From a virus (Duplodnaviria > Caudoviricetes), in the IMG/VR virus record IMGVR_UViG_3300035220_000425, positions 90-64,089 of that record: a stretch of DNA of 64,000 nt. The stretch is one strand, 5' to 3'. The stretch's first letter is position 1. Each line of letters begins with the position of its first letter. A program made the translations under genes and the position numbers. The notes under the pieces were generated by a model, which ran no database searches, had not been told where the DNA came from, and saw only the letters and a program-made list of their open reading frames with translations. Shown piece after piece: positions 31,273 through 57,287 of this stretch.

Positions 31273-32175
31273 ATGGCTCTTACACTGACCGAAGCCAAGA
31301 AGCATTCAGCTAACCCCCAACAGTTAGCCGTGGTATCTGAGTTAGCCGCTGGATCCTTGCTCAGCGTGCTGCCCTTCAGAGACATCCAAGGTAATGGACT
31401 CTTCTGGAAAAGAGAAGAAAGCCTGGGCGAAGTAGGTTTCAGGAACTACAACTCTAACTATTCAGAAAGCTACGCTGAAATCAGCCAACAGTCGGAATCT
31501 CTCCGCCTGTTTGGTGGTGATATCAAAATTGATCGGGCAATTCTTTCCTTGGAAGGAAACGAGTCTCGTGCCTATCAAGTGCAGTCAAAGACTCGCGCAA
31601 TGCGTCTGTCTTGGGAATCACTGTTCATCAACGGCGACTCCAATCAGTCCCCTTCTGAGTTTGACGGCCTAGCCGCTCGACTTCCTGCCGCTAGCTACGC
31701 TACAAACTCTCAGGTCATTCGCAACGCCTCTTCTGCTGCTGCTCTTGATCTTGCTGCTCTCGACGAAGCCGTCGATGCTGTCGACGCCCAAGGTGGTCGC
31801 AAGTATCTCGTGATGTCTAAGTCGATGCGTCGTCATCTGACTAAGCAAGCTCGGGCAAATGCTCAGATCGAGATTACTCGTAACGAGTTTGGCTATCAGC
31901 AGATGGTTTACGCCGGCCTGCCTGTCGTTGAACTGGATCGGGATCATGCAAACACTCCCATCCTTGACGGAACCCCTGGAGATCAGTCCATCTATGTCGC
32001 ATCTTTCGGCAATGATTTGTTGACTGGTATTCAGAACGGTGGCGTTCAAGTCCGCGATTTGGGAGAGTCTTCTGCCTCACCTCAAATTGTAATCAGAGTT
32101 GAATGGTATTGCGGTTTAGCTCTGATCAATGGAAGAGCAGTCTCTCGTCTATGTAATGTTGACGCAACTGCTTGA
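31273..32175 (+). CDS. Major capsid protein
   Basis: MALTLTEAKK, GGDIKIDR, FINGD...EFDGL and RVEWYCGL motifs; strong codon bias; terminator follows. Confidence 0.9.
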   Translation: MALTLTEAKKHSANPQQLAVVSELAAGSLLSVLPFRDIQGNGLFWKREESLGEVGFRNYNSNYSESYAEISQQSESLRLFGGDIKIDRAILSLEGNESRAYQVQSKTRAMRLSWESLFINGDSNQSPSEFDGLAARLPAASYATNSQVIRNASSAAALDLAALDEAVDAVDAQGGRKYLVMSKSMRRHLTKQARANAQIEITRNEFGYQQMVYAGLPVVELDRDHANTPILDGTPGDQSIYVASFGNDLLTGIQNGGVQVRDLGESSASPQIVIRVEWYCGLALINGRAVSRLCNVDATA

Positions 32176-33828: not shown

Positions 33829-35358
33829 ATGCCAGTACCCGCTAATCGAGCAAAAATCCAGTTAGCAAGGGGAACTGCTGCAAACTTACTAGCAGCGCCC
33901 ACCTCTTTCGAAGAGGGAGAGTTGGCGTATGCAACTGACGAAAATCTTTTATATATTAAAGAAGGCCTTGCTTTAGAAAGGTTAGAATATGTAACTTCAG
34001 CAGATTTACAGATTGCAATATCCGCCGCGATTGCCTTAGTTGTTATTGCTGAAGACGGGGTCATTCATAATTCAGCATCTAGTCAGACTGTCATTACACT
34101 CGACGAACCGTATGTCAGGAATTTAACAGGCATTACAGATTCATCAGGCCCTTCTGGGTTTGTGGATAAAGACAGTACTGTTGTTGCTTACCGCTCAACA
34201 GAGCAGCAAATCTGGCTATACCCCGTAGGAGCGTCCGCGGCGGTGTGGTGTCGGGGACTTAAGCATACGTTTACAAGCTATAAGTTTGTACCTCAGCCCA
34301 CGGCGACTGGAATATACAACATTTACTTAGATGAAACTTTTACCTTGCAGATAAAAACTACTGCTTTTGACTACAAGTTAGACACCCCCGTCTGTGTTCT
34401 TTGGTGGGATCAAACTAATGGCGTGCCATTGATGATCAATGACAACAGGCATGGAATCACCATGGACTGGAATACCTTAGGGTATTTAAAATCAGCCAGA
34501 TCAGCAACAGTCGCAGGCTTTGACGTTGGCAATATCACTACGAGTAATGATGGCTCGGCAGATAGTCAGGCCAAGTTCTCGTTAAACAACGGTACTGGTC
34601 GTTTTCACGATTTGCAAATACCTGCGACTCATTCCGCCACACCAGCAGCAAATACCGCTCAGAATTTATTTCAGCAAGTACTTTCTCCGGCCGCTAAAAT
34701 TCCAGTTTTCTATCAAGTAACTAATAGCGGAGCATCCGAGTGGAGTCACACGACTCCTACCGAGTATGCTTGGGTCGACTCTGCAGGTGTACCCACTTAT
34801 AATTCTAACGCGGGATCATGGGCAAATACTGCAGTTACTAATGGAGCCTACTTTATTACTTTTGTCTGCATAACACAAAACACATTATACCCTATCATTG
34901 GTGTTACAGGTCAAGGTACGTATGACTCTGTCAATTCAGCGTCTGTAGTCAGAATTGCAGATTTAGACCTTGGCACTATGGCGGACATAGAAATCAAAGA
35001 ACTATATAAAATTATCTATAAATATGACACAAGCTATGCTAATACAAGCAATGTTGTCGTGGAAGCCTACGAAGATCTTCGTAAATACGATAAGAACATT
35101 CATGTTAGCGAAGATTTTATAGACCATGGTCGACTCAAGGGTTTAGGTAATGATGACCATTTACAATACGTACACATTAGCAATGCAAGAACAATCACGG
35201 CTACTCACACTTTTGGAGGTCGTCTAGATGTTCAAAATGCAACCTCAAGCACTAGCTCTACTACCGGTGCAGTAACAGTTAATGGTGGAATGGGTGTCTC
35301 TGGTGATTTTCATTTAGACGGCGATCTGGACGCAGTTATTAATGGCGGGAACTTCTGA
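33829..35358 (+). CDS. Fibre/adaptor protein (GELA N-terminus, NGGNF C-terminus)
   Basis: KIQLARGT...GELAYATDENLLYI; DDHLQY; SSTTGAVTVNGGMGV. Confidence 0.7.
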   Translation: MPVPANRAKIQLARGTAANLLAAPTSFEEGELAYATDENLLYIKEGLALERLEYVTSADLQIAISAAIALVVIAEDGVIHNSASSQTVITLDEPYVRNLTGITDSSGPSGFVDKDSTVVAYRSTEQQIWLYPVGASAAVWCRGLKHTFTSYKFVPQPTATGIYNIYLDETFTLQIKTTAFDYKLDTPVCVLWWDQTNGVPLMINDNRHGITMDWNTLGYLKSARSATVAGFDVGNITTSNDGSADSQAKFSLNNGTGRFHDLQIPATHSATPAANTAQNLFQQVLSPAAKIPVFYQVTNSGASEWSHTTPTEYAWVDSAGVPTYNSNAGSWANTAVTNGAYFITFVCITQNTLYPIIGVTGQGTYDSVNSASVVRIADLDLGTMADIEIKELYKIIYKYDTSYANTSNVVVEAYEDLRKYDKNIHVSEDFIDHGRLKGLGNDDHLQYVHISNARTITATHTFGGRLDVQNATSSTSSTTGAVTVNGGMGVSGDFHLDGDLDAVINGGNF

Positions 35359-35391
35359 TTCGGAATGATATAATGATGATCTAGAGCTAAA

Positions 35392-36543
35392 ATGGCGACT
35401 TCCGTAAGAATCAAGAGAAGAGATGCCAGCGGCAGCGCGGGAGCACCTTCGACATTGCTGAATGGAGAATTAGCCTATAATGAAAATGACAATACTCTTT
35501 ACTATGGTTTCGGGGTTGGTTCTGGAACCACCGCTGCAAGCGTTAAGTCTATTGCTGGCGAAGGTTCTTACTTCAGTCGAAGCGAAAACATACAAGCGAA
35601 TAGGATCCTTGCAGGCCCTGCATCAGGCCTCGCCGCAAGCTCGACCTATAGGTTATTAGTCTCTGACGATATTCCTAGCATTGCTCATACCAAAATAAGC
35701 GATTTTGATGCTGGTGTTCAGGCTAATACTTTAGATACATTGGCTGCTGCTGCTGCTAATGTAGCTCTAGGTTCTAATAGAATTGTTGGTTTAGCTGATC
35801 CAGTAGACGCTACTGACGCTGCGAATAAACAGTATGTAGATGCTGCAAGATCTGGACTGGATGTCAAGCCTAGCGTTAGAGCGGCTACTACCGCAAATAT
35901 TACGCTTTCAAATACACAGACAGTCGATGGAGTAAGCCTTGCTGCCGGCGACAGAATCCTTGTCAAAGATCAAACAGATGGCTCAGAGAATGGCCTTTAT
36001 GCTGTCGTAAGTGGTGGTGCTTGGACTAGAACTTCAGACGCCAATGTTTCTGCAGAAGTCACCCCAGGATTGTTTACATTTGTAGAAGATGGCACAGTAA
36101 GCGCTAATAAAGGCTTTGTGCTAACAAATACAGGTAGTGTTAACCTTGGCACTGACAGCTTAGTCTTCGCGCAATTCTCTGACACGGGGATCATCACGGC
36201 TGGCAATGGATTAACTCAATCAGGACAAACTTTTAACATCGGCCAAGGTACTGGCATAACGGTGAACGCAAGTTCAATCCGTATATCTAGCAGCTATAGT
36301 GGTCAAAGCTCCATCACTACAGTTGGGACAATCAGCAGCGGAGCGTGGGGCGGTAATGCTATCGGAGCAGCTTACGGAGGAACAGGGCTAACTTCTGTCG
36401 CTAAGGGGTCGGTCCTTGTATCCAACACTGCGAATCAATTTACAGCTTTGGATGGTGGCGGATCGAATGACGGCCTTTTAGCCTACGACCAAGCAACTGA
36501 TACCATTTCATGGAGCAGTGTCATCGATGGTGGAGTTTTCTAA
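35392..36543 (+). CDS. Fibre/adaptor protein (GELA N-terminus, IDGGVF C-terminus)
   Basis: DAANKQYVD and VRAATTANITLS...GDRILVKDQT...NGLY domain. Confidence 0.75.
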   Translation: MATSVRIKRRDASGSAGAPSTLLNGELAYNENDNTLYYGFGVGSGTTAASVKSIAGEGSYFSRSENIQANRILAGPASGLAASSTYRLLVSDDIPSIAHTKISDFDAGVQANTLDTLAAAAANVALGSNRIVGLADPVDATDAANKQYVDAARSGLDVKPSVRAATTANITLSNTQTVDGVSLAAGDRILVKDQTDGSENGLYAVVSGGAWTRTSDANVSAEVTPGLFTFVEDGTVSANKGFVLTNTGSVNLGTDSLVFAQFSDTGIITAGNGLTQSGQTFNIGQGTGITVNASSIRISSSYSGQSSITTVGTISSGAWGGNAIGAAYGGTGLTSVAKGSVLVSNTANQFTALDGGGSNDGLLAYDQATDTISWSSVIDGGVF

Positions 36544-36590
36544 GATATAATTAATATATACGGCAGAATATGTGTAGCGAAGGTTAGGAC

Positions 36591-39500
36591 ATGCCCGATT
36601 TTGTGATCAAGCTAAGAAGATCGGGGACTACGGGCAATACTCCTGATGTTAATGATTTGCAATTAGGCGAATTAGCTGTAAATACTTATGATGGTAAGCT
36701 TTTTTTAAAAAAAGATGATGGAACCCCGGGCGTTATCGAAGTTGGGCAAGGATGTGACTTAACATGGACTGCAAGTACTAGAACTATATCTTCTAGCTCA
36801 GGGAATAATGCTGTCATAACTAATGTTACGACAAGTAATTCTGGGCTTATGTCCAGTACAGATAAGAGCAAGTTGGATGGCATAGCTGCTGGGGCTGAAG
36901 TAAATATAGGGACTGGCTTAAGTTACGTAGCTAACAGTCGAGAAATCCAATCATCTACTGGGGGCAATGCCACGCTGCCTGAAGTCGTAGCGGGCAGTAC
37001 GTCAGGACTTATGACGGGTTCGGACAAGACTAAGCTTGACGGGATAGCCACTGGCGCCGAAACTAACGTAGGGACAGACTTAACATACACTTCAGCTACA
37101 AGATCATTGAACTCATCTACGGGTTCAAATGTAGCGCTACCCCTTGTTGGTGCTGGCGGAACCGCTGGCTTAATGTCAGGGACTGATAAGACAAAGCTTG
37201 ACAGCATTCAATCGAATGCAGAAATTAATGTAAAAGCGGATTTTAATGCAACATCTGGTGACGCTCAGATCTTAAACAAGCCAACTATTCCAAGCAATCT
37301 TGGAGACTTAAGTAACGTAGATTCTACTACTCCTGCTAATGGTCAGGTCTTGACATGGGACGATACTAATTCTTACTGGGAAGCTGCAGATGCAGTAGCA
37401 GTAGCAGATTCAGGTAATGCTGATACTGTAGATAATCTACACGCATCTAGTTTCTTAAGGTCCGACACGTCAGACAGCATGACCGGATCCTTAACCGTAT
37501 CCGGGAATGTTTCCGCAGCCGGTACGATTTCTACCTCAGGACAAAACACCATAAATGAAGCCAGCACATTAAAATTTAGTCAAGAAACTACAACTCTTTC
37601 TCAAATCAGAGCTTACGGCTCAAATGCTTCTACGTTTGGAAGTCTTGAGTTTAAAGTTGGTCCTAGCACCGGAGCACCTCATACTCCGCTGACATTAACC
37701 AGTACAGGGGGCGCCATATTTACGGGTGATGTTCAAACAGGGGAGCGTGTTTATAGGACAGGTAAAACTGGTTTCTATCTTGACGCTACTTACATTCTTC
37801 CTGTAAAAAATGGCGCAGAATCAACCGATGGCTCAGTTAATTTTGGCAGTGCAACTTACCCTTTTGGATCCGCCACATTTGCGGGACGCTGTAATTTTGG
37901 TAGTAGTAGCGTTGCCGATGTTTCTGGCAAATTTAGCAATAGTGACGCAGCGTCAGCCACTTTATACGTCACAAACCATAACGCTTCAGGCACTCTTTTT
38001 TCAGGAAGAAATTCAAGCAACACTGAAGTAATTGATCTCGGAGTGGATGGAGCCGCCACATTTGCGGGGTCTGTCTACTCAGGAGGTGAAGCCTATAATG
38101 GTTCAGCTAATGGCGTCAGGCTGTATGAAAGCGGCACGATCTATGCGTCCAGATCCTCATCCAACGTTTTTACTGGATATACGACCGGAAGCTCAACGGA
38201 GACAAGCGTCATCACAGCCGCAGGAGCCGCCACATTTAAGGGTACCGTGTCAACAGAGAATTATTACACAGTTGATCGTAACATAACTCCTGGTACCGGC
38301 GCTTTATACCTAGGTTTCACTCAAGGAGTTCAGAAGTTTAAAGTAGGAACCGATGGATCCGCCACACTTGGGGGATCGATTGATTTAACCGACAGTACGG
38401 TAGATCTTTATTCACAAACTACCAACGCAAATTCAAAAACTTTTCAACTGTTTTCTGATATAGGCGGAACAAAAGTAGAAAAAGCCTTCATCAAAGCATC
38501 AGGCGACGCCACATTTGCCAATATTTATACTGATGGATGGTATAGAAATAATCAGGCAGGTGAAGGTTTATACAACCAATCAACTGATTCACATTTTTAC
38601 AGTGCCGGGTCTAACTATTGGCACATAAATGGAGACGATGGGGCATTGGGGGGCGGGGGTTTGATTCTTTATGATCGGTACCAACCAACGCAGGCCAGCG
38701 CAACTGGAAGAAAGGGTTATTTGTATTGGGACTCGACTGGCTTTGGTCTATTAAGTAATAATGGATCTTGGGCGTACCGACATAACAATACTCAGGCCGA
38801 TATTTATGGCACAATCAGGCAAGGCGGCACTAACATCGTCTGGCACGCAGGAAATGACGGCGCAGGTTCAGGCTTGGATGCTGACTTGTTAGACGGATTG
38901 CAAGGTTCTGTTTATATGAACAAGGGCTCTAGTAGTTCTTATTATCAGCCTGATAATTGGATTGATTTTAATACAACTAATGACGGTTTATATTGGTCTG
39001 GAAGCACGTCGGCTGGATGGCACATTTACCCAGCAGACGCTAATAACATGCGATTCAGAACGTCAGGCAATACATGCGGCTTAAGGCTGGATACCAATAA
39101 TGGCACTATCAGAGGGGTTCTTTATGCGGACAACAGCAATAACATTGGCATCTTGAACCAGAACGGAAATTGGCGGCTAAAATGTCCATCTAGTGGCTCA
39201 CTTTCTAGGGATGGTACCCAAACGATCTGGGACTCAGGTAATGACGGGTCGGGGTCAGGCCTAGATGCTGACACTGTAGATGGTGTGCATGCATCATCAT
39301 TCATACAGACAGATTCTAGTGGCAATTTATTATTGGCCGATGGAAAAGCTATTTTCATGTCAGGATTTACAGATGCTAATACTTTTAACATAGCATCATT
39401 GTTCGTTGATGCAATTAAGTGTGGCAACCTCCGCATTCATGATGGCCGCGAAACAACCGCCGGATCTGGCTTGATGCACAACACGATAATTGGAAATTCT

Positions 39501-40283
39501 GCTAGAACATTTACTACTGCTAGCGGAGATGTTAATACAGTAGTTGGGTCGTTTGCTGGTTACAGCATGTCTACCGGCCACGAAAACACTTTGATAGGAG
39601 CTAGGGCACAACAAGCGGTTACGACAGGTGGTTATGGGACTTATGTCGGTGTTGATGCAGGAAAAAATAAAAAATATGGTGATTACTGTACTGGAATTGG
39701 CTACAGATCAGACTTTTACACTACCGGTGGTAGCACTAACAATACTGAAAACTATTCAAATACAACCTGCCTAGGGTATGATTCTCGACCTAGTGGTAGC
39801 AATCAAGTGGTTGCTGGTAACACAAATGCTACCTTGCATTATTATGGTTTAAGTAACCGATCTGATGAACGTGACAAGATTGATATACAAGACGAATTCC
39901 TCGGATTAGATTTTATCAAAAAATTAAAACCGCGTGCTTATAAATGGGATTACCGTGATAATTACTTTGATGAGGTATTTGACGAAGTAGAAAACCCGGA
40001 CAATCCCGGCCAATTTGACAAAGAAGCAAGGCTTGTGCCTGTGCCTAAAGACGGGTCTCGCAGTGGTACTCGTTTACATCACGGTCTAATCGCACAAGAG
40101 GTAAAAGAAATAATTGATGAAACAGGCGTGGATTTTGCAGGCTATCAAGATAGTAAAGTCAAAGATGGTCAAGATGTTTTAAGCATGAACTATTTAGAAT
40201 TAATAGCACCTATGATCAAAGCAATTCAGGAGCAACAGGTGCAAATTGACTCTTTGAGTAAAACGATTGAGTCGATGAAATAA
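36591..40283 (+). CDS. Tail fibre A with C-terminal peptidase S74 chaperone
   Basis: GLMSxxDKxKLD x3, GSGLDAD repeats, GxATFxG junctions, SDERDK...GLIAQEV. Confidence 0.9.
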   Translation: MPDFVIKLRRSGTTGNTPDVNDLQLGELAVNTYDGKLFLKKDDGTPGVIEVGQGCDLTWTASTRTISSSSGNNAVITNVTTSNSGLMSSTDKSKLDGIAAGAEVNIGTGLSYVANSREIQSSTGGNATLPEVVAGSTSGLMTGSDKTKLDGIATGAETNVGTDLTYTSATRSLNSSTGSNVALPLVGAGGTAGLMSGTDKTKLDSIQSNAEINVKADFNATSGDAQILNKPTIPSNLGDLSNVDSTTPANGQVLTWDDTNSYWEAADAVAVADSGNADTVDNLHASSFLRSDTSDSMTGSLTVSGNVSAAGTISTSGQNTINEASTLKFSQETTTLSQIRAYGSNASTFGSLEFKVGPSTGAPHTPLTLTSTGGAIFTGDVQTGERVYRTGKTGFYLDATYILPVKNGAESTDGSVNFGSATYPFGSATFAGRCNFGSSSVADVSGKFSNSDAASATLYVTNHNASGTLFSGRNSSNTEVIDLGVDGAATFAGSVYSGGEAYNGSANGVRLYESGTIYASRSSSNVFTGYTTGSSTETSVITAAGAATFKGTVSTENYYTVDRNITPGTGALYLGFTQGVQKFKVGTDGSATLGGSIDLTDSTVDLYSQTTNANSKTFQLFSDIGGTKVEKAFIKASGDATFANIYTDGWYRNNQAGEGLYNQSTDSHFYSAGSNYWHINGDDGALGGGGLILYDRYQPTQASATGRKGYLYWDSTGFGLLSNNGSWAYRHNNTQADIYGTIRQGGTNIVWHAGNDGAGSGLDADLLDGLQGSVYMNKGSSSSYYQPDNWIDFNTTNDGLYWSGSTSAGWHIYPADANNMRFRTSGNTCGLRLDTNNGTIRGVLYADNSNNIGILNQNGNWRLKCPSSGSLSRDGTQTIWDSGNDGSGSGLDADTVDGVHASSFIQTDSSGNLLLADGKAIFMSGFTDANTFNIASLFVDAIKCGNLRIHDGRETTAGSGLMHNTIIGNSARTFTTASGDVNTVVGSFAGYSMSTGHENTLIGARAQQAVTTGGYGTYVGVDAGKNKKYGDYCTGIGYRSDFYTTGGSTNNTENYSNTTCLGYDSRPSGSNQVVAGNTNATLHYYGLSNRSDERDKIDIQDEFLGLDFIKKLKPRAYKWDYRDNYFDEVFDEVENPDNPGQFDKEARLVPVPKDGSRSGTRLHHGLIAQEVKEIIDETGVDFAGYQDSKVKDGQDVLSMNYLELIAPMIKAIQEQQVQIDSLSKTIESMK
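37866..38519 (+). repeat. Five in-frame GGNNNCGCCACAYTT junction repeats (fibre A)
   Basis: Copies at 37866, 38049, 38223, 38355, 38502. Confidence 0.85.
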
Positions 40284-40314
40284 CTGGTATAATGAAAGCA
40301 GCTAAATTACTAAA

Positions 40315-40488
40315 ATGGCTGAAACCAACCCTGAACTCACAAAGCTTCAAGAGTCTCAAAAAGTCCTTATTAGCGAGATTGAATCGCTAAACTCACAAGC
40401 AATGCAAAAACGTGAATTGCTTTTGAAGTATCAAGGAGTTATTGAGTATCTAAGTGCTCGGGAGGCTCAAGAGGAGTCAGATGAATAA
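40315..40488 (+). CDS. 57-aa coiled-coil protein, likely fibre assembly chaperone
   Basis: MAETNPELTKLQESQK...LLKYQGVIEYL; TGgTATAAT extended -10 at 40285-40293. Confidence 0.7.
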   Translation: MAETNPELTKLQESQKVLISEIESLNSQAMQKRELLLKYQGVIEYLSAREAQEESDE

Positions 40489-40542
40489 TAGTGTCAAAAT
40501 AATGGCAATATAACATAGCAAGACCGCCAAAGGAGACGATAA

Positions 40543-43500
40543 ATGACAGACACTACTGTCAAACTTAAAAGAAGTTCGACCTCTGGCGGCGTTCCAAATA
40601 TTTCGGATTTATCTCTGGGTGAGCTAGCAGTAAACACTTTTGACGGTAAATTATTTTTCAAGAAGGATAATGGAACCGCGTCGATCATAGAGGTTGGATC
40701 CGGCAGTGGTGGTGGTAGCGGGCCTTCAGCAGCAGTTAAGGTCTTGCTTTATGAAAAGACAAATAGTGGGAACGCTGACAGTTTTGATGGATCAGAGACC
40801 CAATTTCAACTACGCGACGATAGCGGCACAGTTATTAGCAACCTTTCGTCAGCATCTCAACTATTAATTAGCATTGACGGGGTAGTCCAAGAGCCTAATT
40901 CAAGTTCATCAGGCACTGACGGTTTCTATATTTCAAACACGGCAAGCGGAACAGACATTATCTTTCTAGCAGCCCCTGCATCGGGCTCAGATTTTTTCGG
41001 CATGGTGGGCATCCTTAGCGGAAGCTTTGCGACGGTTGCTACTTCAGGCGATTACGACGACTTAACGAATAAACCAACGTTATCTCCAGTAATGTCTGTT
41101 GCTGGTAAGACGGGTACGGTAGCACTGATACAGAGTGACATTGGTAGTGGCGCTGTAACTGCCACTACAGGCACCTACGCAAACGGTGCTACGTTTGGGG
41201 ACAGCGTAGGGATTGGCGGCTCACCAACTGGAGCCTTTGGTGCTATTGACAAAGGACTTTTGATTACTGGGACAAATACTTCAGTAGGACTACGTGTTCA
41301 TACATCTCATGGCAATTCCGGCATTTTAGAAATGTACGCTGAAAGCGGCGGATGCGTTTTTGATACACGCGGCAGTGACTATATTCGATTCGCAAGCGCC
41401 GGAACTGAGTTCATGCGAATCGATAGCTCGGGCAGCGTCAGTGTTGGTAGTACAGCCACATCTGGCACAGGTGTGCATCTCCGTCCATTTGGTAATGTTA
41501 TTTCACGCAGGGCTAGCGGTTCTTTGCAAGTCTTCGAAGGATATCAAGGGTCAACTTTAACTTCTGAGATCCTGGCTAATGGCAACGCTAGGTTTGGGGG
41601 CAAGGTAGGTATCGGTTGCACACCTGTTCGAGATCTTCAGTTACATACTTCTGACGCATCAAGTGAACTGATGCTTTCAAATAGCACTACTGGAGCAACC
41701 GCAGGTAGTGGCTTTATGATCCAGCAGGATGGTAACGATAATTATATTTGGAATAAAGAAAATAGTTTTATGTCGTTCGGGACTAATGCTCTCGAGCGGA
41801 TGCGAATCGACAGCACGGGCGACTTAAAGCTTCAGTATACGGGTAAGTTTATTCTGACTGAAGGTACTAATAGCGCTTTTTCAATATCCACAAACGGTGC
41901 AAATGGTCATTTTCTGATTAGAGATGAATATAATAGTTCAGATCGAATGATAATTAACAATTCTGGTCGCGTTGGAATCGGAACATCAAATCCCTCCCAT
42001 GCGTTACATGTAACTGGGGATATTAGGGCTGGCACAACTTCATATAATGATTACGGAATCAAAGCTTATACGAACTCTGCTTCTTATGGTGGAATCTATG
42101 CACAAAATAACAATCCCTCTGGATTTGTGTTCACTGGAAATAATGGTTCAGCCAACACAATTCTTATCAAGGCTGACGGGAAAGTTGAGACTACTGGCAG
42201 TGGCTCTTTCTATACAGTCAACCGCACAGGCACTCTATCTCCGACTGCTGCCTTATATCTTGGATTTGCTGATGGCAGTCAAAAGTTCAAGGTTGGAACT
42301 GACGGAACGGGGACATTCGCTGGCAAGCTTGGCGTTGGAACCACGACCCCAGCAAAAGACCTAGAGATTTTTAATGACAGTTTCCCGTGTCTCATGCTGA
42401 ATGATGGCAATCAGTATAAATCTTATATGCAACTAGGTGGCAATGACTTAGAAATTCGAGGAAGTTCAGGAAAACTTGAGTTTTACACAGGTGCAGCCGA
42501 TGGCTTGTCATCAGACGAGAGAATGTGCATTACTAACGCGGGCAAGGTTGGAATTGGTAACGCAGATCCAGGTGCTTTACTTCAGGTAGCAAACTCCAGC
42601 AACCACGGTGTAGTTCGTGTTGGAGGAAACAATGATGGAGCGACTGGTCTTGACATTAATTACTCAAATGGTGGCACTACCTCTACAACTATTAAGCAGA
42701 ATTACCGCGCAACTAATGGAAATGCATTATTAAATATTGATACTGGTATCTTTACGGTTTCGACCGGAACTAGTGGCGACGAGCATATGCGAATCGATGG
42801 CACGGGCAGGTTGTTAGTAGGTACGACTTCACCAACAACATCTAGCGTTACAACACGAATAAGTGCTTATTCAGATACTAATGACTGGATGTTGATGGAC
42901 ATTGGAGCCACACAGAGTGGCAATACGGGTGGAGTTTATGGAGTCAGGAGTAGATCAGCATCAAACAATCCGATTGCCGTAGCTAGTGCTTTTGAAAGTG
43001 CTACTGAAGTTGTATGTTATTACGGTGGTGGTTGGGGTGGTTACGGTCGATCGGCTAATAATTTAAGGTTTTATACATCCGCCGCTGTAGATAACGCATC
43101 TGGAACATCTGGGAACGAGCGAATGAGGATTCGCCCGGATGGCAGCGTGCTTATTGGCACTACTACCGCTTCCTCTCATGGGAATAGACTTCTACAGATT
43201 GGAAAAACAGACAGAAGTGAGACTTATCTAGAACTTAGAACGGCAACAACTGGAGTATCAGGACTTTTATTTAGCAGAGGAACTGGTGGAGGCACATCAG
43301 GATACAAAGGGACTATTGAATACAATCAATCTAGTGACTATATGCTGTTTAAGACTGAACATACCGAGCGGATGCGAATCGACAGTAATGGTACATTGCG
43401 TACTCTCATGACGGGTGGTTCAGGAAGACTTCACCTTGCAACTGATCAAGGGGCTGGAAGTACTATTCTTTTAAATGTTGTTAACAGTAGGACTGTCATT

Positions 43501-43908
43501 AATAGTGGTGGTTCTGCATCTTGCAGGATTTACTCAGACGGTGATATTGAAAATAGCAACAATTCCTACGAAGTCCTCTCTGACGAAAATTTGAAAGAAA
43601 ACATTGTCGATGCAAATTCACAATGGGATGACATCAAAAGCTTGAGAATCCGTAAATTTAACTTTAAAGAAGAAACAGGTAATTCAATGCACACGCAAAT
43701 TGGTGTTGTTGCACAAGAGGTTGAACTTGTTTCCCCAGGATTGGTCAAAGTCAGACCTGCTCTTACCGAAGAAGGTGAGGAAGCAGGAGATACGGTTAAG
43801 ACTGTTAGCTCCTCTGTGCTCTACATGAAAGCAGTCAAAGCTCTTCAAGAAGCAATGGAGCGGATCGAAACCCTTGAGCAGCGTTTATCTGATGCTAGTA
43901 TCGCCTAG
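40543..43908 (+). CDS. Tail fibre B with ERMRI repeats and C-terminal peptidase S74 chaperone
   Basis: GELAVNTFDGKLF N-terminus; seven ERMRI-like units; SDENLK...GVVAQEV. Confidence 0.9.
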   Translation: MTDTTVKLKRSSTSGGVPNISDLSLGELAVNTFDGKLFFKKDNGTASIIEVGSGSGGGSGPSAAVKVLLYEKTNSGNADSFDGSETQFQLRDDSGTVISNLSSASQLLISIDGVVQEPNSSSSGTDGFYISNTASGTDIIFLAAPASGSDFFGMVGILSGSFATVATSGDYDDLTNKPTLSPVMSVAGKTGTVALIQSDIGSGAVTATTGTYANGATFGDSVGIGGSPTGAFGAIDKGLLITGTNTSVGLRVHTSHGNSGILEMYAESGGCVFDTRGSDYIRFASAGTEFMRIDSSGSVSVGSTATSGTGVHLRPFGNVISRRASGSLQVFEGYQGSTLTSEILANGNARFGGKVGIGCTPVRDLQLHTSDASSELMLSNSTTGATAGSGFMIQQDGNDNYIWNKENSFMSFGTNALERMRIDSTGDLKLQYTGKFILTEGTNSAFSISTNGANGHFLIRDEYNSSDRMIINNSGRVGIGTSNPSHALHVTGDIRAGTTSYNDYGIKAYTNSASYGGIYAQNNNPSGFVFTGNNGSANTILIKADGKVETTGSGSFYTVNRTGTLSPTAALYLGFADGSQKFKVGTDGTGTFAGKLGVGTTTPAKDLEIFNDSFPCLMLNDGNQYKSYMQLGGNDLEIRGSSGKLEFYTGAADGLSSDERMCITNAGKVGIGNADPGALLQVANSSNHGVVRVGGNNDGATGLDINYSNGGTTSTTIKQNYRATNGNALLNIDTGIFTVSTGTSGDEHMRIDGTGRLLVGTTSPTTSSVTTRISAYSDTNDWMLMDIGATQSGNTGGVYGVRSRSASNNPIAVASAFESATEVVCYYGGGWGGYGRSANNLRFYTSAAVDNASGTSGNERMRIRPDGSVLIGTTTASSHGNRLLQIGKTDRSETYLELRTATTGVSGLLFSRGTGGGTSGYKGTIEYNQSSDYMLFKTEHTERMRIDSNGTLRTLMTGGSGRLHLATDQGAGSTILLNVVNSRTVINSGGSASCRIYSDGDIENSNNSYEVLSDENLKENIVDANSQWDDIKSLRIRKFNFKEETGNSMHTQIGVVAQEVELVSPGLVKVRPALTEEGEEAGDTVKTVSSSVLYMKAVKALQEAMERIETLEQRLSDASIA
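41407..43385 (+). repeat. ERMRID junction repeats with DNA core ATGCGAATCGA
   Basis: Core at 41413, 41800, 42787, 43372; diverged copies at 41941, 42517, 43117. Confidence 0.8.
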
Positions 43909-43954
43909 CTCTTTCTGCTAGGCAGACTAGTGAAGATTTTTAGCCCTAAGTCAG

Positions 43955-46534
43955 ATGGGATTAAGTAAAATTAGCGGCTCGGGTATTGATGACAATGTAA
44001 TTGTACCTGCAAATCTACATTCTAGCTTTGTTCTACCTATTTCAAAACTTGCGACCGCTGGGGGTGTCACGTTTAATACGCTAGTTCAATGTGGTGGCGA
44101 CCCTAATGATGGCAGTGCTGTTGGGGCGAAGATGCTTCAAAGTGGGGTTATTCAGGCAACTAGAGCGTCTGGGTCAGGAACCAGTGCTGTTTATATGGGA
44201 TTTTTGCAGGGGACTTCTACTGCGACTTCAAGGATTAATGCAAACGGCAGTGCTACGTTTAGTGGTCAAGGTACTTTTAGTGGGGACTTAAGGGTTCAAG
44301 ATGGTGGAAATTTCAGAGTACGTAATGCTAGCAATGCAACTCAAGACGCTATTTTGCTCCAGAACAATGGCAACATAACAGCGGCAGGAGGAGCCACATT
44401 TGGTAGCGCAGTAAATGGACTTTATTTTTCAACAGACAGAACCAACGGCGGTAGTACTGTTCTTGAAGGCTACTTAAACGGCACAAAGAACGTAGATGTT
44501 AAGGCGAATGGCAGCGCCACGTTTGGCAATACAATCACATCGGGTTCCTCAACTGTTCGTGGTCAATTTCTAGGCAATTGTCCTTCAAGCATTACAGCAT
44601 CGGCCGCCGACGCTTTTATTGCTGATTACAATGGAACTACAGTCGCTCGTGTGAGATACGATGGATCCGCCACATTCAATGCCGGCAGCACTTTTGCTGG
44701 AATATGTGGGGGTTCGGCAGGAATTTACGTTGGAGACGCAACAACAACTAACCAAGGCAACGCCAAGGCTCGCATCAATTCCGACGGCAGTATCACTACT
44801 GTTAAATACATTACGAGCACTCGTTTCACAGTTAATGGTGCTCTAAGTTCTAATGTAAATGGCGTTAACTATCCTTTTGCTGCTTATGACGGCAGTAGCA
44901 ATCTTTATGCGTCGATTACCGAATCCGGGGACGCCACATTTGCTGGTGATGTAAATATCGGTAATTCGGCTAAAAATGCACAGTTGGCGGTTGGTGGTGT
45001 ATACAACCAAGTTGGTTTAGCGGTTAGTGCTGGTGGAGCCAGTTACTCAAATTGCGCTGAATTTTATAATTCAGGTAATGTCCTTGCTGCATCAATCGGA
45101 GGGGATGGAGCCTCCACATTTAAGGGAACGGTTACCAGTGGTGGGAATCCAGCCAGTGGTGCAGCCAGAGGTACTTCAATCAATGAGTACGGTACTTTAA
45201 GGGCTGCGAATACAAGTGGCACCGTATTTGAAGGCTACACTGTAGGGACTGCAGCAACCACTTCGCAAATAACAGCGGCAGGAGCCGCCACATTTGCGAC
45301 CAAGGTTACCGCCCCAGATTTTGATTCAAATCATCCAAATGATAGCAGATTCGGAAGATTTAACTGGGCAGGTATTCGTTTCACAAATACTTCTGGCAGC
45401 AACGTATTTCAGTTTGATGCTGATGCCGGTCAAATCACAACAAATGTTAAATCTGCTGGCCATATAGAACTTGACTCCACTGGATCTTTTAGTAGCCCTA
45501 AGGTAAAACTATTTGCTAACACTGGTGCCGCCACATTTGCGGGTACGTTGAACGTAGGTTCTGTTCTTACCGCTAGTGGAGGTTTTCGTGCTAATTCTGA
45601 GGGTACAGTCTTCATCAACCCTGCATCATCTTTAGCAAGTACTGCAACTGTATTTTCAGCCTACGTAGATAGGTCTACTGGTACAGCGACGGCAGTAACA
45701 TTCACGAAAGCAGGATCCGCCACATTTGCGGGTGTTCTTCAAGGTAATCAAAGAGTTGTAGTTAACGGTGCTGGGGGTAAATCAGGAACTGCAAATACTT
45801 TCTTGAACTATGCTGGAGACGCAACGACAGTAACAGCATCAATCGATGCTAATGGCTTGGGTGTTTTTGATGGAGGAGTAAGAGTTACGCATACAGCAAA
45901 TACAAGGCATTGTCGCATGCTTTATGACGGCATATATTCCACCGGTCAGGATCTGTATCTTTGGACAGGTACTACAAATAGCGTAATTTTTGGCAATAAC
46001 AGTTCAGCAAAAATGATGCTCCAGTGTTCTACTGGCGCTTTATTAATTAACCGCACTTCCCAGAATAATCTTGGCAAGCTTTGTCTGGACTTTTACGGCC
46101 AAACAGAAAACGGAATTGTTATAAAAAATACTTGGAATGCAAATAATGCCTACTTCGCTGTTTTTAGGAGTCAAGGTAATCACTTGGCTGGGGGCATTAT
46201 ACAAACGGCTTACAATGCAGTTAATTACAGCAGTGGCTCTGACTACCGCTTAAAAGAAAATGTTATCGACATGCCTGATCCCATTGTTCGCATCAAAAAA
46301 CTGAAGCCAAAACGCTTTAACTTTATATCCGATATTGACAAGAATGAGGTCGATGGATTTCTTGCCCACGAAGCACAAGAAGTCGTACCCGAAGCGGTTG
46401 TAGGAGAAAAGGACGGCAAAGAAATGCAATCCATTGACCACAGCAGATTGGTCCCGCTACTCACTGCTGCTTTGAAGGAAGCAATATCAAGCATCGAAGC
46501 ATTAGAATCAAGGGTGAAGACCCTTGAAAGCTAA
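43955..46534 (+). CDS. Tail fibre C with C-terminal peptidase S74 chaperone
   Basis: GxATFxG junctions; SDYRLKEN...GFLAHE. Confidence 0.9.
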   Translation: MGLSKISGSGIDDNVIVPANLHSSFVLPISKLATAGGVTFNTLVQCGGDPNDGSAVGAKMLQSGVIQATRASGSGTSAVYMGFLQGTSTATSRINANGSATFSGQGTFSGDLRVQDGGNFRVRNASNATQDAILLQNNGNITAAGGATFGSAVNGLYFSTDRTNGGSTVLEGYLNGTKNVDVKANGSATFGNTITSGSSTVRGQFLGNCPSSITASAADAFIADYNGTTVARVRYDGSATFNAGSTFAGICGGSAGIYVGDATTTNQGNAKARINSDGSITTVKYITSTRFTVNGALSSNVNGVNYPFAAYDGSSNLYASITESGDATFAGDVNIGNSAKNAQLAVGGVYNQVGLAVSAGGASYSNCAEFYNSGNVLAASIGGDGASTFKGTVTSGGNPASGAARGTSINEYGTLRAANTSGTVFEGYTVGTAATTSQITAAGAATFATKVTAPDFDSNHPNDSRFGRFNWAGIRFTNTSGSNVFQFDADAGQITTNVKSAGHIELDSTGSFSSPKVKLFANTGAATFAGTLNVGSVLTASGGFRANSEGTVFINPASSLASTATVFSAYVDRSTGTATAVTFTKAGSATFAGVLQGNQRVVVNGAGGKSGTANTFLNYAGDATTVTASIDANGLGVFDGGVRVTHTANTRHCRMLYDGIYSTGQDLYLWTGTTNSVIFGNNSSAKMMLQCSTGALLINRTSQNNLGKLCLDFYGQTENGIVIKNTWNANNAYFAVFRSQGNHLAGGIIQTAYNAVNYSSGSDYRLKENVIDMPDPIVRIKKLKPKRFNFISDIDKNEVDGFLAHEAQEVVPEAVVGEKDGKEMQSIDHSRLVPLLTAALKEAISSIEALESRVKTLES
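44387..45732 (+). repeat. Eight in-frame GCCACATT-type junction repeats (fibre C)
   Basis: Copies at 44387, 44510, 44663, 44927, 45107, 45281, 45524, 45713. Confidence 0.85.
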
Positions 46535-46593
46535 CTATTCTAGAATAAGATTTTAAAAAATAGTTATACTAAGTAGTAGTATTTAATTCTGAA

Positions 46594-47043
46594 GTGACTG
46601 ACACTTACACTTGGTCCGTGTCTAACATGGACTCTTCCACTGTTGACGGGGCCGTAAACACTGTCCACTGGAATCTCGAGGCCACACGTCCCAACCCTGT
46701 AGAAGGCGAATACGACTACAGAGCAGGCTCTTACGGGACAGTAGGTTTTATTCCAAACCCAGCGAGTAAAAAATTCATTAGTTATGATGACTTGACTGAA
46801 GAAACTTGCGTCAAGTGGGTTCTTGACTATTACGGGTCAGAACAAGTTGCCAGAATGCAATTAATGCAAAGCTCTGTTCTGGACGAGCAGCAAACTCCAA
46901 CTAAATTTTCAGGGACTCCCTGGGGAAGGGCTATCCAAGAAATGGACGAGCAAGAGGCAGCAGAACAAGAGGAGTCTACAGAACAAGAGGAGTCTGCTGA
47001 GGGAGAGGATTCTACTGAGGAAGAGGATGGAAGCCTAGAATAA
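46594..47043 (+). CDS. Tail fibre assembly protein (putative)
   Basis: TYTWSV...TVHW...FISYDDLTEE..VKWV...GTPW with acidic tail; follows the fibres. Confidence 0.65.
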   Translation: MTDTYTWSVSNMDSSTVDGAVNTVHWNLEATRPNPVEGEYDYRAGSYGTVGFIPNPASKKFISYDDLTEETCVKWVLDYYGSEQVARMQLMQSSVLDEQQTPTKFSGTPWGRAIQEMDEQEAAEQEESTEQEESAEGEDSTEEEDGSLE

Positions 47044-47061
47044 CTTAAGGTTTAGAATGCG

Positions 47062-47310
47062 GTGATTGAGATTTTAGCCGCTGTAACAGGAGCAATGGTA
47101 GGGGTCGCAGGCATTGGCGCGACCCAATTAATAAGAAAGAGTGGAGACAATAGAGAGGTGATTGCCAAGCTAACTGTGGGGGTTGACCACATCGGACAAG
47201 AACTCACAGCATTAAGGGCTGACATGAAGATGGATCGGCAGGAAATGTATTCACGTCTAAATGAATGCGAACAAAGATTATCGGTAATTGAGTCACAGAA
47301 GAAGCGTTAG
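47062..47310 (+). CDS. Single-TM plus coiled-coil protein (holin/antiholin-like)
   Basis: N-terminal TM segment and coiled coil; in lysis cassette. Confidence 0.55.
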   Translation: MIEILAAVTGAMVGVAGIGATQLIRKSGDNREVIAKLTVGVDHIGQELTALRADMKMDRQEMYSRLNECEQRLSVIESQKKR

Positions 47311-47345
47311 CAGCCTTGGCAGACTAGCGCAGTTACAGTAATACG

Positions 47346-47531
47346 ATGTCATTTATCACAACAGCAATCGACAAATCACCGGAATTTATCACAGCCTTAT
47401 TTACCATTCACGCTGCAGCAGTCGCTATTGTCAACCTGACGCCGACTCCTAAAGATGACGAGATTGTAGCTAAGTTTTACAGAATTATTGAAATTCTTGC
47501 AGGTCTCGTATCAAGAACTGCTAAGAGATGA
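47346..47531 (+). CDS. Putative holin
   Basis: TM segment followed by TPTPKDD; upstream of endolysin. Confidence 0.6.
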   Translation: MSFITTAIDKSPEFITALFTIHAAAVAIVNLTPTPKDDEIVAKFYRIIEILAGLVSRTAKR

Positions 47532-52811: not shown

Positions 52812-53576
52812 ATGACAGACAGCAATCCGTCGCCAAATCAGTTTCCTGTGGAGCTACCAAACCTCAAAGGCGTTGCAACCAATGACCTTGTGGAATCGAT
52901 CGGGACCGGTAAATACAGTGCTACCTATATCAACTGGAGCCGGACGATGCAGTTGCTCCGAGATCATGCACCTGGATGGATGCCTGAACTTGTTCCAAGC
53001 ACCAGAAATGGCGGTGTTCTGTGGGAATCGCCAGTAGGGTGCTACTTAATGCTTAGGTTTCAACACATTTCTGGCTACGTGACCCCGATGGTTCCGCAGG
53101 CGATTATGGATTACAAAAATAATTCCATTCCGCTTGCAAAAATTACATCTCGAGATATTACAGACACTGAAAGACGTGGTAGCTGTCTCCTAGCTTCTAA
53201 GCAATTCGGCCTAGCTTACGAACTATGGGCGAAAATGCCTCTCGAGAATCCCTACAGAGTCGTAGACGATCTCCCTAAAGAAGCCTCTTCGTCGTCTGCG
53301 AAACTGCCAATGAAGAAGCCTGAGAAGCCAAAAGCATCTCCTGTTCTTAAATCGGAACCTTTGATCCCGGACGATGGAAGTGAACTTCGCGAAACTTTCA
53401 TGAACGCCTTGCGTGGCATTGGTTTAATGGAAGAACTTATCGAAAGTTTTACTGACAAAGCCAGAGACGGCAAAGGGTATCAGGAGGGAATGTCTTCCAT
53501 ATACAGCTTCCCACAAGGATGGGCGGAGGAGCAGAACAAAAAATTTCGAGAAAAGCAAGAAGCTTCGGCATATTAG
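52812..53576 (+). CDS. Single-strand annealing protein, Sak3/DUF1071-like
   Basis: TYINWSR...QAIMDYKNNSI...DITDTERR...FGLAYELW. Confidence 0.7.
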   Translation: MTDSNPSPNQFPVELPNLKGVATNDLVESIGTGKYSATYINWSRTMQLLRDHAPGWMPELVPSTRNGGVLWESPVGCYLMLRFQHISGYVTPMVPQAIMDYKNNSIPLAKITSRDITDTERRGSCLLASKQFGLAYELWAKMPLENPYRVVDDLPKEASSSSAKLPMKKPEKPKASPVLKSEPLIPDDGSELRETFMNALRGIGLMEELIESFTDKARDGKGYQEGMSSIYSFPQGWAEEQNKKFREKQEASAY

Positions 53577-54510: not shown

Positions 54511-54885
54511 ATGGCAGAAGTCTCCGCTTACGGTCGGGTTACTTGCAAAACAGGAGAAAAGGCTTATACGTTAAGAGAGGGCGAAAAATACTCGTTCTTA
54601 ACGTTCAGCCTCCTTGACTCTAAACCCACAAAAAACTTTTTCAAAGATCCAGACGACAATCCTGGTCAATTTTATCAGGTCGAAGTTACTGGGAAAAAGT
54701 ACTGTGCTTATCTCTCTGAGCAAATTGAGAAAGGTCGAATTGTAGCCATCACTGGACAGGCTGTCTGGTCTCGCTACAACGACAAAAAGTACCTGACGGT
54801 AAAAAACAGTCAAGTTACTTTTCTTGATTGGCACTTACTGAAAGCTGCTGAAGAGAGCAAAGCTGCCTCTGATGATCCATTTTAA
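54511..54885 (+). CDS. ssb: Single-stranded DNA-binding protein
   Basis: OB-fold pattern and acidic DDPF C-terminus. Confidence 0.85.
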   Translation: MAEVSAYGRVTCKTGEKAYTLREGEKYSFLTFSLLDSKPTKNFFKDPDDNPGQFYQVEVTGKKYCAYLSEQIEKGRIVAITGQAVWSRYNDKKYLTVKNSQVTFLDWHLLKAAEESKAASDDPF

Positions 54886-54960: not shown

Positions 54961-55440
54961 GTGAAAATGACACAAGTTCAACATGAATGGGATGAGTCTG
55001 AGATGCCAGTGGACATTCCCGGATGTGTTGGCGCTTTCGTTGATGAGATTCCGTTGGTAACTCACGCGATGCTAAGGCCATACGTCATCGCTATTTTGCT
55101 TCATCGTAAGGCTGTAAGGCTGTCTGAGATAATGGCAGCAGTTACTCCGCATTGCTCTTCTATTGACTTGAAGATAGGAGCGTGGGGGGAGTACGAAGAT
55201 ACTGAGCCTAACAAGACAAGGCTTGAAATCATTGCAGAAGAAGTTTTAGGTAAAATGGTTGCAAGTGGTTTGATCGTCTACAATAAGAGTCAAGACTTTT
55301 GGGTCTTAACCAGAGGAGAAAAAGATCAAAATTTAACCACTGTCATAAGCTGGGTTTCCAGCCTGGATGCACAACTCCCTGTCGAATTCTTTAGAAATGC
55401 CACTCAACAAAAGCGGAACAAACAAAAAAACTGCTCTTGA
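54961..55440 (+). CDS. Hypothetical protein (possible winged helix)
   Basis: 159 aa ORF. Confidence 0.6.
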   Translation: MKMTQVQHEWDESEMPVDIPGCVGAFVDEIPLVTHAMLRPYVIAILLHRKAVRLSEIMAAVTPHCSSIDLKIGAWGEYEDTEPNKTRLEIIAEEVLGKMVASGLIVYNKSQDFWVLTRGEKDQNLTTVISWVSSLDAQLPVEFFRNATQQKRNKQKNCS

Positions 55441-56027: not shown

Positions 56028-56380
56028 TGGAATATCCTGAAATAATCCTTCCGCTTAGGCTGATGTCTAAGGCGAGGCCCCGTGTAACGTCAAGGGGAAC
56101 CTACATGCCTAAATCCTACCAGGACTGGAGGAAAGAATGTCGATCCTTATTGCTTGAGGTTTGGAGGTTTGATCCCATTGCCACTCCTATTGCTGTTGAG
56201 ATAGATTGTTTTGGGGCTGCCAGAGGAGACGTGGACAACTATATGGGAGCCTTGTTTGATACGGCCAATAAAATACTATGGGCAGACGACAGGTCTACTA
56301 TCATCCAGAAAGCCTCTATATCTTTTGAAAAACGCCCCCTATCAGAAAGTTTATGGAAGATAAGAATATTTGACCTATAG
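56027..56380 (+). CDS. rusA: RusA-like Holliday junction resolvase
   Basis: SKARPR and GDVDNYMGALFD...WADD. Confidence 0.85.
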   Translation: MEYPEIILPLRLMSKARPRVTSRGTYMPKSYQDWRKECRSLLLEVWRFDPIATPIAVEIDCFGAARGDVDNYMGALFDTANKILWADDRSTIIQKASISFEKRPLSESLWKIRIFDL

Positions 56381-57287
56381 ACTAGTTAGAGGTATTTCTA
56401 ACATGACTACTTTGCCGGCGGATGTCTCTTACTTTCAATCTGATTTTTCTTACAGGAAGGCTGAAGGGGAAAGTCAAACGCAATTAAAGTCGATCTTGCA
56501 TAGTCCTGCTCATTATCAAGCGGCTGCAAAGAGGTTCTTTAGACCGTCTTCAGCTATGATTATTGGTACTGCTACTCACTGCAAGGTTTTAGAAGGCGAC
56601 GACAAGTTCAATGCTGATTTTATTAAAAAACCTTCCAATATTAAGTACACCAACAAAGAAGGCCGTGAATGGAAGGATGAGCAAAAAGGCAAGACGGTCT
56701 TAAGTAATGATGGTTACCACAGAGAATGGGATTCTGTCCAAGGTATGTCGGAGTCACTCAGACAGTTGGATTGGTTTAATCCAGAGCAGGATTACTACAG
56801 AAAATACAATGAGGTTTCTATTTACTGGATGGATCAAGGAATCCCTTGTAAAGCTCGGCTAGATCGAGTAATCGTCACAGATACTCACGTTCATGTTATT
56901 GACCTGAAAACTACTGACTCTGTTTCGACTGACAAGTTTCAAAGCAAACTCGTAGACTTGGGTTACGATTTTCAGGCAGGCTGGTATACCTGGGCTGCAT
57001 CGTTAGCATTTGGGCTCCCGGCCACATTCACTTTCGTTGCTGTCGAAAGGCAAGAACCTTGGTTGGTAAAGGTTTTTGACACTTCTCAAGATATGCTATC
57101 GGAGGCTCGAAGGAAAAACAAGAAAGCTTTGAGCCTTTTGAGAGGTTGTCGACAGGCTAATAATTGGCCTAAAGGAGAGGTGACAAGACAAACATTGCAA
57201 TATCCTCGCTGGTATGCAATGACGCAAGACCCTGCTAGTATTGATGCAGCTAACATGACTGCCGATGAACTTGCCGGAGTACTCTGA
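56370..57287 (+). CDS. PD-(D/E)XK exonuclease, RecE/ExoVIII-like (likely start 56403)
   Basis: SPAHY, GTATH, CKARLD, IDLKTT, YDFQAGWY, FVAVE. Confidence 0.9.
   Translation: MTYRLVRGISNMTTLPADVSYFQSDFSYRKAEGESQTQLKSILHSPAHYQAAAKRFFRPSSAMIIGTATHCKVLEGDDKFNADFIKKPSNIKYTNKEGREWKDEQKGKTVLSNDGYHREWDSVQGMSESLRQLDWFNPEQDYYRKYNEVSIYWMDQGIPCKARLDRVIVTDTHVHVIDLKTTDSVSTDKFQSKLVDLGYDFQAGWYTWAASLAFGLPATFTFVAVERQEPWLVKVFDTSQDMLSEARRKNKKALSLLRGCRQANNWPKGEVTRQTLQYPRWYAMTQDPASIDAANMTADELAGVL

Follow-up and report, generated by a model that had tools for sequence, protein, structure and literature searches.

In-frame seams with conserved DNA and the exchange of modules in the tail fibre genes of a phage from marine metagenomes

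The present analysis concerns three consecutive long open reading frames (ORFs) encoding tail fibre proteins in a DNA stretch of 64,000 nucleotides (the window), which represents nearly all of the 64,089-base IMG/VR record IMGVR_UViG_3300035220_000425, rated about 79% complete. The window stretch occurs in marine and seawater metagenomes and in viral metagenomes from 12 studies, and the genes of the phage include those for a tape-measure protein, a tail tube protein, a terminase, a DnaB-like helicase, a primase, ThyX and an endolysin. All on the + strand, tail fibre A (1230 aa, 36591..40283) comprises an Mtd_N-like N-terminus and an array of modules at aa 373-644, tail fibre B (1121 aa, 40543..43908) carries E-R-M-R-I-D motifs together with a few ATF-like ones, and tail fibre C (859 aa, 43955..46534) possesses an array of modules at aa 98-593. 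Each of them ends in a C-terminal Peptidase_S74 (PF13884) intramolecular chaperone (34.8, 41.9 and 32.2 bits for A, B and C, respectively, with a cut-off of 22), and PHROG tail fibre and tail spike families match them too. The modules of fibres A and C are delimited by short in-frame junctions, hereafter called seams, at which relatives of the phage have exchanged them.

The seams encode the motif G-x-A-T-F-x-G and are named after the fibre and the amino acid position at which they lie. Fourteen in-frame copies, spaced by 41-88 aa, occur, five in fibre A and nine in fibre C; one of them is an L variant and another an S variant. A fifteenth, the I variant A373 (GGAIFTG, 37707..37727), was retained because relatives break there. 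All of them lie on the + strand. The other seams of fibre A consist of A426 (GSATFAG, 37866..37886), A487 (GAATFAG, 38049..38069), A545 (GAATFKG, 38223..38243), the L variant A589 (GSATLGG, 38355..38375) and A638 (GDATFAN, 38502..38522). Those of fibre C are C98 (GSATFSG, 44246..44266), which uses the off-dialect codons GCT ACG, C145 (GGATFGS, 44387..44407), C186 (GSATFGN, 44510..44530), C237 (GSATFNA, 44663..44683), C325 (GDATFAG, 44927..44947), the S variant C385 (GASTFKG, 45107..45127), C443 (GAATFAT, 45281..45301), C524 (GAATFAG, 45524..45544) and C587 (GSATFAG, 45713..45733). A pattern search for G.[AS][TI][FL].. matched 17 sites in fibres A and C but no site in fibre B; two of these sites, A125 (GNATLPE) and A918 (GKAIFMS), are not regarded as seams, since they lie outside the arrays and are devoid of the DNA signature.

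At the DNA level, the seams follow the consensus GGA KCC GCC ACA TTT GCG GG, which encodes (D)G-x-A-T-F-x-G, and the heptamer CCACATT occurs in 11 of the 14 copies. The 20-mer GGATCCGCCACATTTGCGGG is exact at 37866 in fibre A and at 45713 in fibre C, i.e., in seams A426 and C587; with up to three mismatches it has seven matches, all on the + strand, compared to none in 100 dinucleotide shuffles. Depending on the pair of seams, the longest exact string in common measures 5-20 nt, and the conservation is limited to about 20 nt, beyond which the flanks are unrelated in DNA. The same seam families were recovered by an independent repeat finder. The observation of in-frame seam arrays with conserved DNA is confirmed: the original prediction had described 13 copies with one S and one L variant, 11 of them carrying CCACATT, an identical 20-mer at the two positions and modules of about 40-90 aa. 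The array, both variants, the 11 heptamers, the 20-mer and the module length all agree with our measurements, and the total has to be raised to 14, plus the I variant.

The conservation extends to silent positions. Against a codon background made of 39 ORFs of the window, and with P values that treat the seam copies as independent, the alanine at the third position is spelled GCC in 12 of 13 seams (background 0.18, P=1.3e-8) and the threonine at the fourth ACA in 12 of 14 (background 0.285, P=1.4e-5). Where the second residue is alanine, its codon is GCC in all five cases (P=1.9e-4), and where it is serine, TCC is used four times out of six (background 0.073, P=3.8e-4); alanine at the sixth position is GCG in five of seven seams (background 0.136, P=7.8e-4). 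The first glycine (GGA, 9/14, P=0.013) and the phenylalanine (TTT, 12/13, P=0.037) depart from the background as well. Outside the seams, the combination GCC-ACA spells only 8% of 101 Ala-Thr dipeptides. The genome prefers GCT (0.39) and GCA (0.27) for alanine, as had been supposed, and the comparison of seam codons with genome usage, proposed together with that supposition, reveals a strong departure from the background.

Evidence of exchange comes from loci similar to the fibre region (L-numbers) and from Logan contigs of individual sequencing runs (X-numbers). The closest relative, a single IMG/VR contig compared as L006/L019, is 97.7-98.1% identical to the window up to position 37732, at seam A373, after which its fibre A continues as window 44927-45121 at 92.8%. 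In the window this segment is a fibre-C module, designated B53, which starts at seam C325 and ends at seam C385, and the three-way alignment places the parental switch inside the seam. The same join at A373 occurs in L053 and L054, which belong to other assemblies, whereas fibre C of L006 diverges from the window at 44676, in seam C237. Modules of A and C are reordered in L053 and L057 (44927-45133, 38344-38518, 45428-45543, 45311-45423 and 44252-44352), and both loci end in the C-terminus of fibre B, 43390-43877, at 83%. Similarly, L039 contains 45280-45544 and is then collinear from 45713, i.e., from seam C587 onwards. Single-module protein matches bounded by seams were also found for fibre C at aa 186-240 (78%), 96-149 (76%) and 40-108 (81%).

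Exchange also reaches phages that are otherwise unrelated. L036 has a G+C fraction of 0.36, and its nucleotide similarity to 34001-47500 is confined to the following arrangement: window 37866-38064 is present in it at 99%, with seams A426 and A487 as its limits, directly after 45286-45423. The imported pair of modules (reverse strand, 5856-6199) has a G+C fraction of 0.45, higher than in the remainder of the fibre ORF (0.39) and in the locus as a whole (0.36), which hints at a transfer into L036 from a higher-G+C phage such as the window phage. In the cultured Synechococcus phage ACG-2014i, 44084-44247 is joined to 45414-45546 (79-83%); this was the only DNA-level match to the fibre-C array obtained by blastn among 50,697 cultured phage records, in which the fibre-A array (blastn) and the whole 9.9-kb fibre region (megablast) had no match. 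A scan of viral contigs with fibre A yielded the same close relative and no others. In the alignments, the joints are free of indels and duplications, and the crossovers lie inside shared nucleotides. These comparisons demonstrate that modules have been exchanged inside a fibre, from one fibre to another and among phages, with crossovers inside the seam, and support the original proposal that the junctions are recombination sites at which modules are inserted, deleted or swapped in frame, in one fibre or between two.

The Logan contigs add one further joint, found in run X9, which leads from 45103 (seam C385) to 38352 (seam A589) and has 54 nt on its shorter side. The other contig joints (38237 to 45711, 45544 to 45711, 45299 to 46236, 41820 to 43362 and so on) have 20-27 nt on the shorter side and are too short to count, and a loose end of X5 at 37665 starts with letters which we take to be sequencing-adapter sequence. 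Parts of the stretch lack cover in X5, X7 and X9. Contigs from X3 and X5 agree with parts of the window's own module order with 0 differences.

The breakpoints were also treated statistically. Ends of high-scoring segment pairs (HSPs) with at least 75% identity over at least 90 nt were collected from eight loci, and the 42 ends were merged to 16 positions. At a distance of no more than 6 nt from a seam there are 11 of these positions (null 0.187, P=1.6e-5), and a limit of 12 nt takes in 13 of them (null 0.255, P=4.7e-6). Points located at seams include the HSP ends at 38497 and 38518 (A638), the breakpoints at 44247 and 44252 (C98), the HSP starts at 45280 and 45286 (C443) and the HSP ends at 45540-45546 (C524). 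Homologous fibres lack collinearity, and an excess of breakpoints lies at the junctions. Neither of the two outcomes named as refuting the original proposal, background codon usage at the junctions or collinear fibres with no such excess, was therefore obtained.

Fibre B also takes part in the exchange, by means of a second type of seam. Seven motifs of the E-R-M-R-I-D type lie on the + strand of its gene: B289 (EFMRIDSSG, 41407..41433), B418 (ERMRIDSTG, 41794..41820), B467 (DRMIINNSG, 41941..41967), B659 (ERMCITNAG, 42517..42543), B747 (EHMRIDGTG, 42781..42807), B859 (ERMRIRPDG, 43117..43143) and B942 (ERMRIDSNG, 43366..43392). The seam E-R-M-R-I-D-S-S-G is spelled GAG CGG ATG CGA ATC GAC AGC within window 41407-43392, and ATGCGAATCGA occurs in four of the seven. 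Four HSP ends fall on these seams, at 41413 (B289, where another HSP starts at 41419), 41820 (B418, where X7 and X9 contigs break or join), 42525 (B659, where the similarity to L019 ends) and 43390 (B942, from which L053 and L057 reuse the C-terminus of fibre B). As a separate observation, L054 shows a forward match to 41419-41477 followed immediately by its last 134 nt (7265-7398), which match window 41634-41501 on the opposite strand at 98.5%; this represents an inversion or else a fold-back of the assembly where the contig ends.

Both spellings recur in other viruses, to a very different extent. The 20-mer GAGCGNATGCGAATCGAYAG of the second seam is present in at least 135 viral stretches, and many contigs carry 2-5 copies of it; among the matches listed, 94 distinct contexts occur in 80 loci, with flanks devoid of any consensus and a locus G+C fraction of 0.40-0.55. 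The spelling of the A/C seam is rarer, the strict 20-mer being found in three contigs and a relaxed form in eight viral stretches (seven other contigs), in seven of which it lies in frame within open frames of 592-1582 aa. It recurs in otherwise unrelated fibres whose genomes range from 0.36 to 0.49 in G+C fraction. A distant metagenome fibre, L064:3307-4699, has its own seam of about 30 nt, ACAGGAGCAGCTACATTCTCTAGTAGTGTA (T-G-A-A-T-F-S-S-S-V), repeated four times between dissimilar segments, which suggests group-specific seam "dialects".

With respect to the nature of the modules, a hidden Markov model built from six of them detects non-seed copies in fibre B at aa 321-355 (1.5e-8), 553-595 (6.6e-9) and 514-546 (4.4e-6), but matches only the last 15-25 residues or so of the remaining modules. 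Owing to this match pattern, at least six modules are recognized as diverged copies of a repeat of about 44 aa also occurring in fibre B, while the others share only a terminal strand; the earlier description of the modules as unrelated does not hold for these six. A catalogue clustered at 55% identity or more contains the same modules at differing positions in different fibres, together with three C-terminal domains that recombine independently. In an AlphaFold model of fibre C aa 300-602 (pLDDT 67.6, a predicted local confidence score, best at aa 379-449), which represents a monomer of a probably trimeric fibre and was used for local secondary structure only, A-T-F forms a short β-strand at four of five seams. 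Foldseek of this 303-aa segment against the PDB gave no match at E≤0.001, and at the sequence level no PDB match of fibre C with an E-value under 0.04 was found. The modules may, as originally proposed, act as "adhesion" units, the exchange of which would then alter receptor use.

One window module stands apart. Midway along the 81-aa stretch between seams C443 and C524, at 45423-45428, breaks occur in L036, L046, L053 and L057; the position 45423 recurs in several loci, and L036 exhibits a GGGSATFAG seam there, where the window has none. The C443-C524 module of the window may consist of two modules fused by the loss of a seam.

Taken together, recombination over short homology at the seams, followed by selection for chimeras able to fold, is in our opinion the best reading of these data, and a probable one. 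Fibres A and C would be proteins of trimeric fibres, each a chain of 41-88-aa modules ending in the β-strand motif (D)G-x-A-T-F-x-G, and the 20 or so nucleotides encoding this motif are where the in-frame crossovers would take place. When two seams recombine over this short homology, be they parts of a single gene, of two paralogous fibre genes or of two phages infecting the same cell, whole modules could be inserted, deleted, reordered or swapped, and selection would retain the chimeras that fold. Within an "exchange community", the seams would stay similar at their silent positions through repeated exchange or through selection for exchangeability, and fibre B would behave in the same way with its second and far more widespread seam. 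DNA identity, and not only protein structure, would guide the crossover, and module content may alter receptor binding or fibre geometry.

The catalyst could be the phage's own RecE-like nuclease acting with a putative annealing protein, or the host RecA. A RecE/exonuclease VIII-like PD-(D/E)XK nuclease is encoded at 56370..57287 on the + strand (phrog_412, 2.3e-63; PF12684, 4.9e-27; NF007259, 2.6e-24, the latter far below the equivalog cut-off). The putative single-strand annealing protein (52812..53576, +) matches PF06378 SSAP_Sak at E=0.0086 with 16.1 bits versus a cut-off of 22.3, over positions 6-143 of the 152 of the profile, and nothing in NCBIfam or the PDB. A possible single-stranded DNA-binding protein (54511..54885, +) matches PF00436 with 23.4 bits versus 26. 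Among the catalysts originally put forward, the RecE-like exonuclease is thus solid, the Sak3-like protein stays below threshold, and RusA was not found in the interval searched (54961-56027).

Several points weigh against this reading. The breakpoint test was designed after the first matches had been seen, several of the loci share ancestry and their endpoints were merged, and three of the 16 positions (44352, 45151 and 45423) lie off the window seams. At 5-20 nt, the stretches that two seams share exactly are on the short side for homologous recombination to be efficient, and, of the proteins that might assist it, the annealing protein is a sub-threshold match and RusA was not detected. The partners all come from metagenome assemblies, except for ACG-2014i, and the Logan contigs give no rates for a shuffling that may be ongoing. 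Finally, the off-dialect seam C98 is still a breakpoint, which means that structural selection alone can place breakpoints.

This last point leads to the strongest of the alternatives, according to which structure alone would act as a filter: random or illegitimate recombination would occur anywhere, the survivors being those joined at an equivalent strand, and the frozen codons would result from another cause, such as gene conversion among the repeats or selection on the speed of translation by way of rare codons where modules end. Besides the behaviour of C98, it accommodates the amino acid motif, old and widespread in distant fibres which use their own codons (e.g., GCA ACT TTT GCA and GCT ACA TTC TCT), the β-strand predicted by the model at the seams, and the rarity of the favoured codons TCC, GCC and GCG. 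A filter of this kind does not readily explain why crossovers lie inside shared nucleotides with joints free of indels or duplications, nor why the same 20-mer occurs in otherwise unrelated fibres whose genomes have G+C fractions of 0.36-0.49. Moreover, the L064 group keeps its own spelling of about 30 nt, which fits homology-dependent exchange better than a translational need common to all. On balance, the structural filter appears unlikely.

A dedicated site-specific system, in which an unrecognised recombinase would act on the 20-mer as in integrons or shufflons, is suggested by the sharp boundaries, the defined DNA word and the cassette-like behaviour of the modules. In the 40 window ORFs scanned, from a record about 79% complete, no reverse transcriptase, invertase, integrase or other recombinase of the site-specific kind was found, and the earlier claim of a system operating without a reverse transcriptase of a diversity-generating retroelement (DGR) and without an invertase agrees with this result. 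All seam copies are direct and none is inverted (a 14-mer occurs four times forward and never in reverse, with only one unrelated inverted pair), no long repeat pair, and hence no template/variable repeat pair, occurs in 36591-46534, and the seams vary, the exact strings they share measuring 5-20 nt. A hairpin of the CCGC...GCGG type, considered as a structural signal, folds no better than shuffled sequences in six out of six seams (z -1.19 to +1.54). Such a system is therefore regarded as very improbable.

Hardly any more credit can be given to an artefact, whether mis-assembly at short repeats or tandem-duplication leftovers without exchange, even though repeats can cause breaks or false joins in short-read assemblies and seams are indeed points at which Logan contigs break: the divergence of 1-20% between shared modules and their window counterparts shows that these are different molecules, the join of A373 to module B53 recurs in three loci of separate assemblies, a cultured phage genome (ACG-2014i) has rearranged modules, the seam flanks are unrelated at the DNA level, and contigs from runs other than the two possible source runs match window 44348-45313, 38202-39767 and 41763-44924 with 0 differences.

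Recombination over short homology at the seams has a clear precedent. Recombination at conserved fibre motifs has been in print for the T-even phages since the 1990s; Tetart reportedly described it in 1996 and 1998, and the motifs of T-even fibres are associated with the name "His boxes". Trojet et al. 2011 (PMC3157838) deal with motifs of gp37 and with glycine-rich motifs that flank the hypervariable segments of gp38, giving chimeric fibres with no dedicated enzyme. The two cases share short in-frame conserved motifs separating variable segments of a host-recognition fibre, and the exchanges of the window map in or next to the motifs. They differ in that here 15 seams occur in two genes with a second seam class in a third, that whole structural modules instead of loops are reordered and moved between paralogous fibres, that the order of the modules is free, while the gp38 motif order described there is fixed, that the partner genomes are otherwise unrelated (L036 and the cyanomyovirus ACG-2014i), and that the freezing of silent sites is quantified. 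Homology to the motif regions of gp37/gp38 did not emerge from the searches, in which Pfam and PHROG long-tail-fibre matches cover the C-terminal region only and PDB entry 6f45 is matched at E=0.047 over aa 743-857 only. The present case is a strong instance and an extension of conserved-motif exchange, and not a new principle.

Other systems offer more partial likenesses. According to De Paepe et al. 2014 (PMC3945230), short and diverged sequences are recombined by phage-encoded pairs of a Rad52-like annealing protein and an exonuclease, which gives rise to mosaics, among them exchanges of about 100 bp within genes; the window likewise encodes a RecE-like nuclease, but its annealing protein is a sub-threshold Sak-like match and the seam identity of at most 20 nt is shorter than the substrates tested in the passages compared. 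Tail fibres are enriched in recent sequence-level mosaicism in the survey of Smug et al. 2023 (PMC10684548), which defines no DNA seams and in which neither "breakpoint" nor "linker" occurs as a word, whereas crossovers are mapped here to about 20 nt. DGRs, shufflons and invertases similarly diversify the receptor-binding tips of phages or pili, but the elements that characterize them (reverse transcriptase, template/variable pair, inverted repeats, recombinase) were not found among the 40 ORFs scanned and the repeats of 36591-46534, and integron cassettes differ by their integrase and by hairpins for which the seams offer no counterpart. In the literature, which is not searchable by motif and whose supplements lay outside the search, no arrays of G-x-A-T-F-x-G or E-R-M-R-I-D seams were found.

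The seams provide a mapped and testable case, with crossover sites resolved to about 20 nt and a free module order, of an exchange that spans three paralogous fibres and otherwise unrelated phages, including a cultured cyanophage. Fibres largely determine which hosts marine phages infect, and their rapid diversification is poorly resolved for uncultured phages. The freezing of silent sites constitutes a sequence signature with which metagenomes can be screened, and the seams would be natural places at which to splice chimeric fibres together in laboratory phage-host systems. If DNA identity permits the exchange, seam spelling would predict which phages can trade receptor-binding parts. A bolder and more tentative proposal is that the seams are selected, codon-locked recombination handles, each dialect defining a community of phages that trade modules, so that fibres would be put together combinatorially, with no dedicated recombinase, from an ocean-wide pool of modules extending across phage families. 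Equally speculative is the extension of this codon-locked reading to two handles in the window phage, a local one (GCC ACA TTT GCG, about eight viral stretches) and a pan-virome one (GAG CGG ATG CGA ATC GAC, at least 135).

A scan of genome contigs with the seam 20-mer was also considered as a source of a host clue. It returned nine single matches, with about nine expected by chance (596 Gb, both strands, 18 fixed bases and one two-fold base), most of them in high-G+C genomes and short frames, and it therefore provides none.

A few observations relate to the surroundings of the three fibre genes. N-terminal domains of the Mtd_N type, as in A and B, occur on three more large proteins, encoded at 22790-28243, 28277-30304 and 33829-35358, and the window phage may accordingly possess five or more fibre species. 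The DNA-conserved seam was not found in these three genes; 28277-30304 contains one G-T-A-T-F with ordinary codons and the other two none. An ORF with major-capsid-protein matches (PF20911 GP7 and PF17236 SU10_MCP) lies at 31273-32175, downstream of the tape-measure gene and among the fibre-like genes, which is an unusual place. Two genes for sigma-70-like factors are located at 53698-54486 and 60296-60925 (Sigma70_r2, one of them also with r4).

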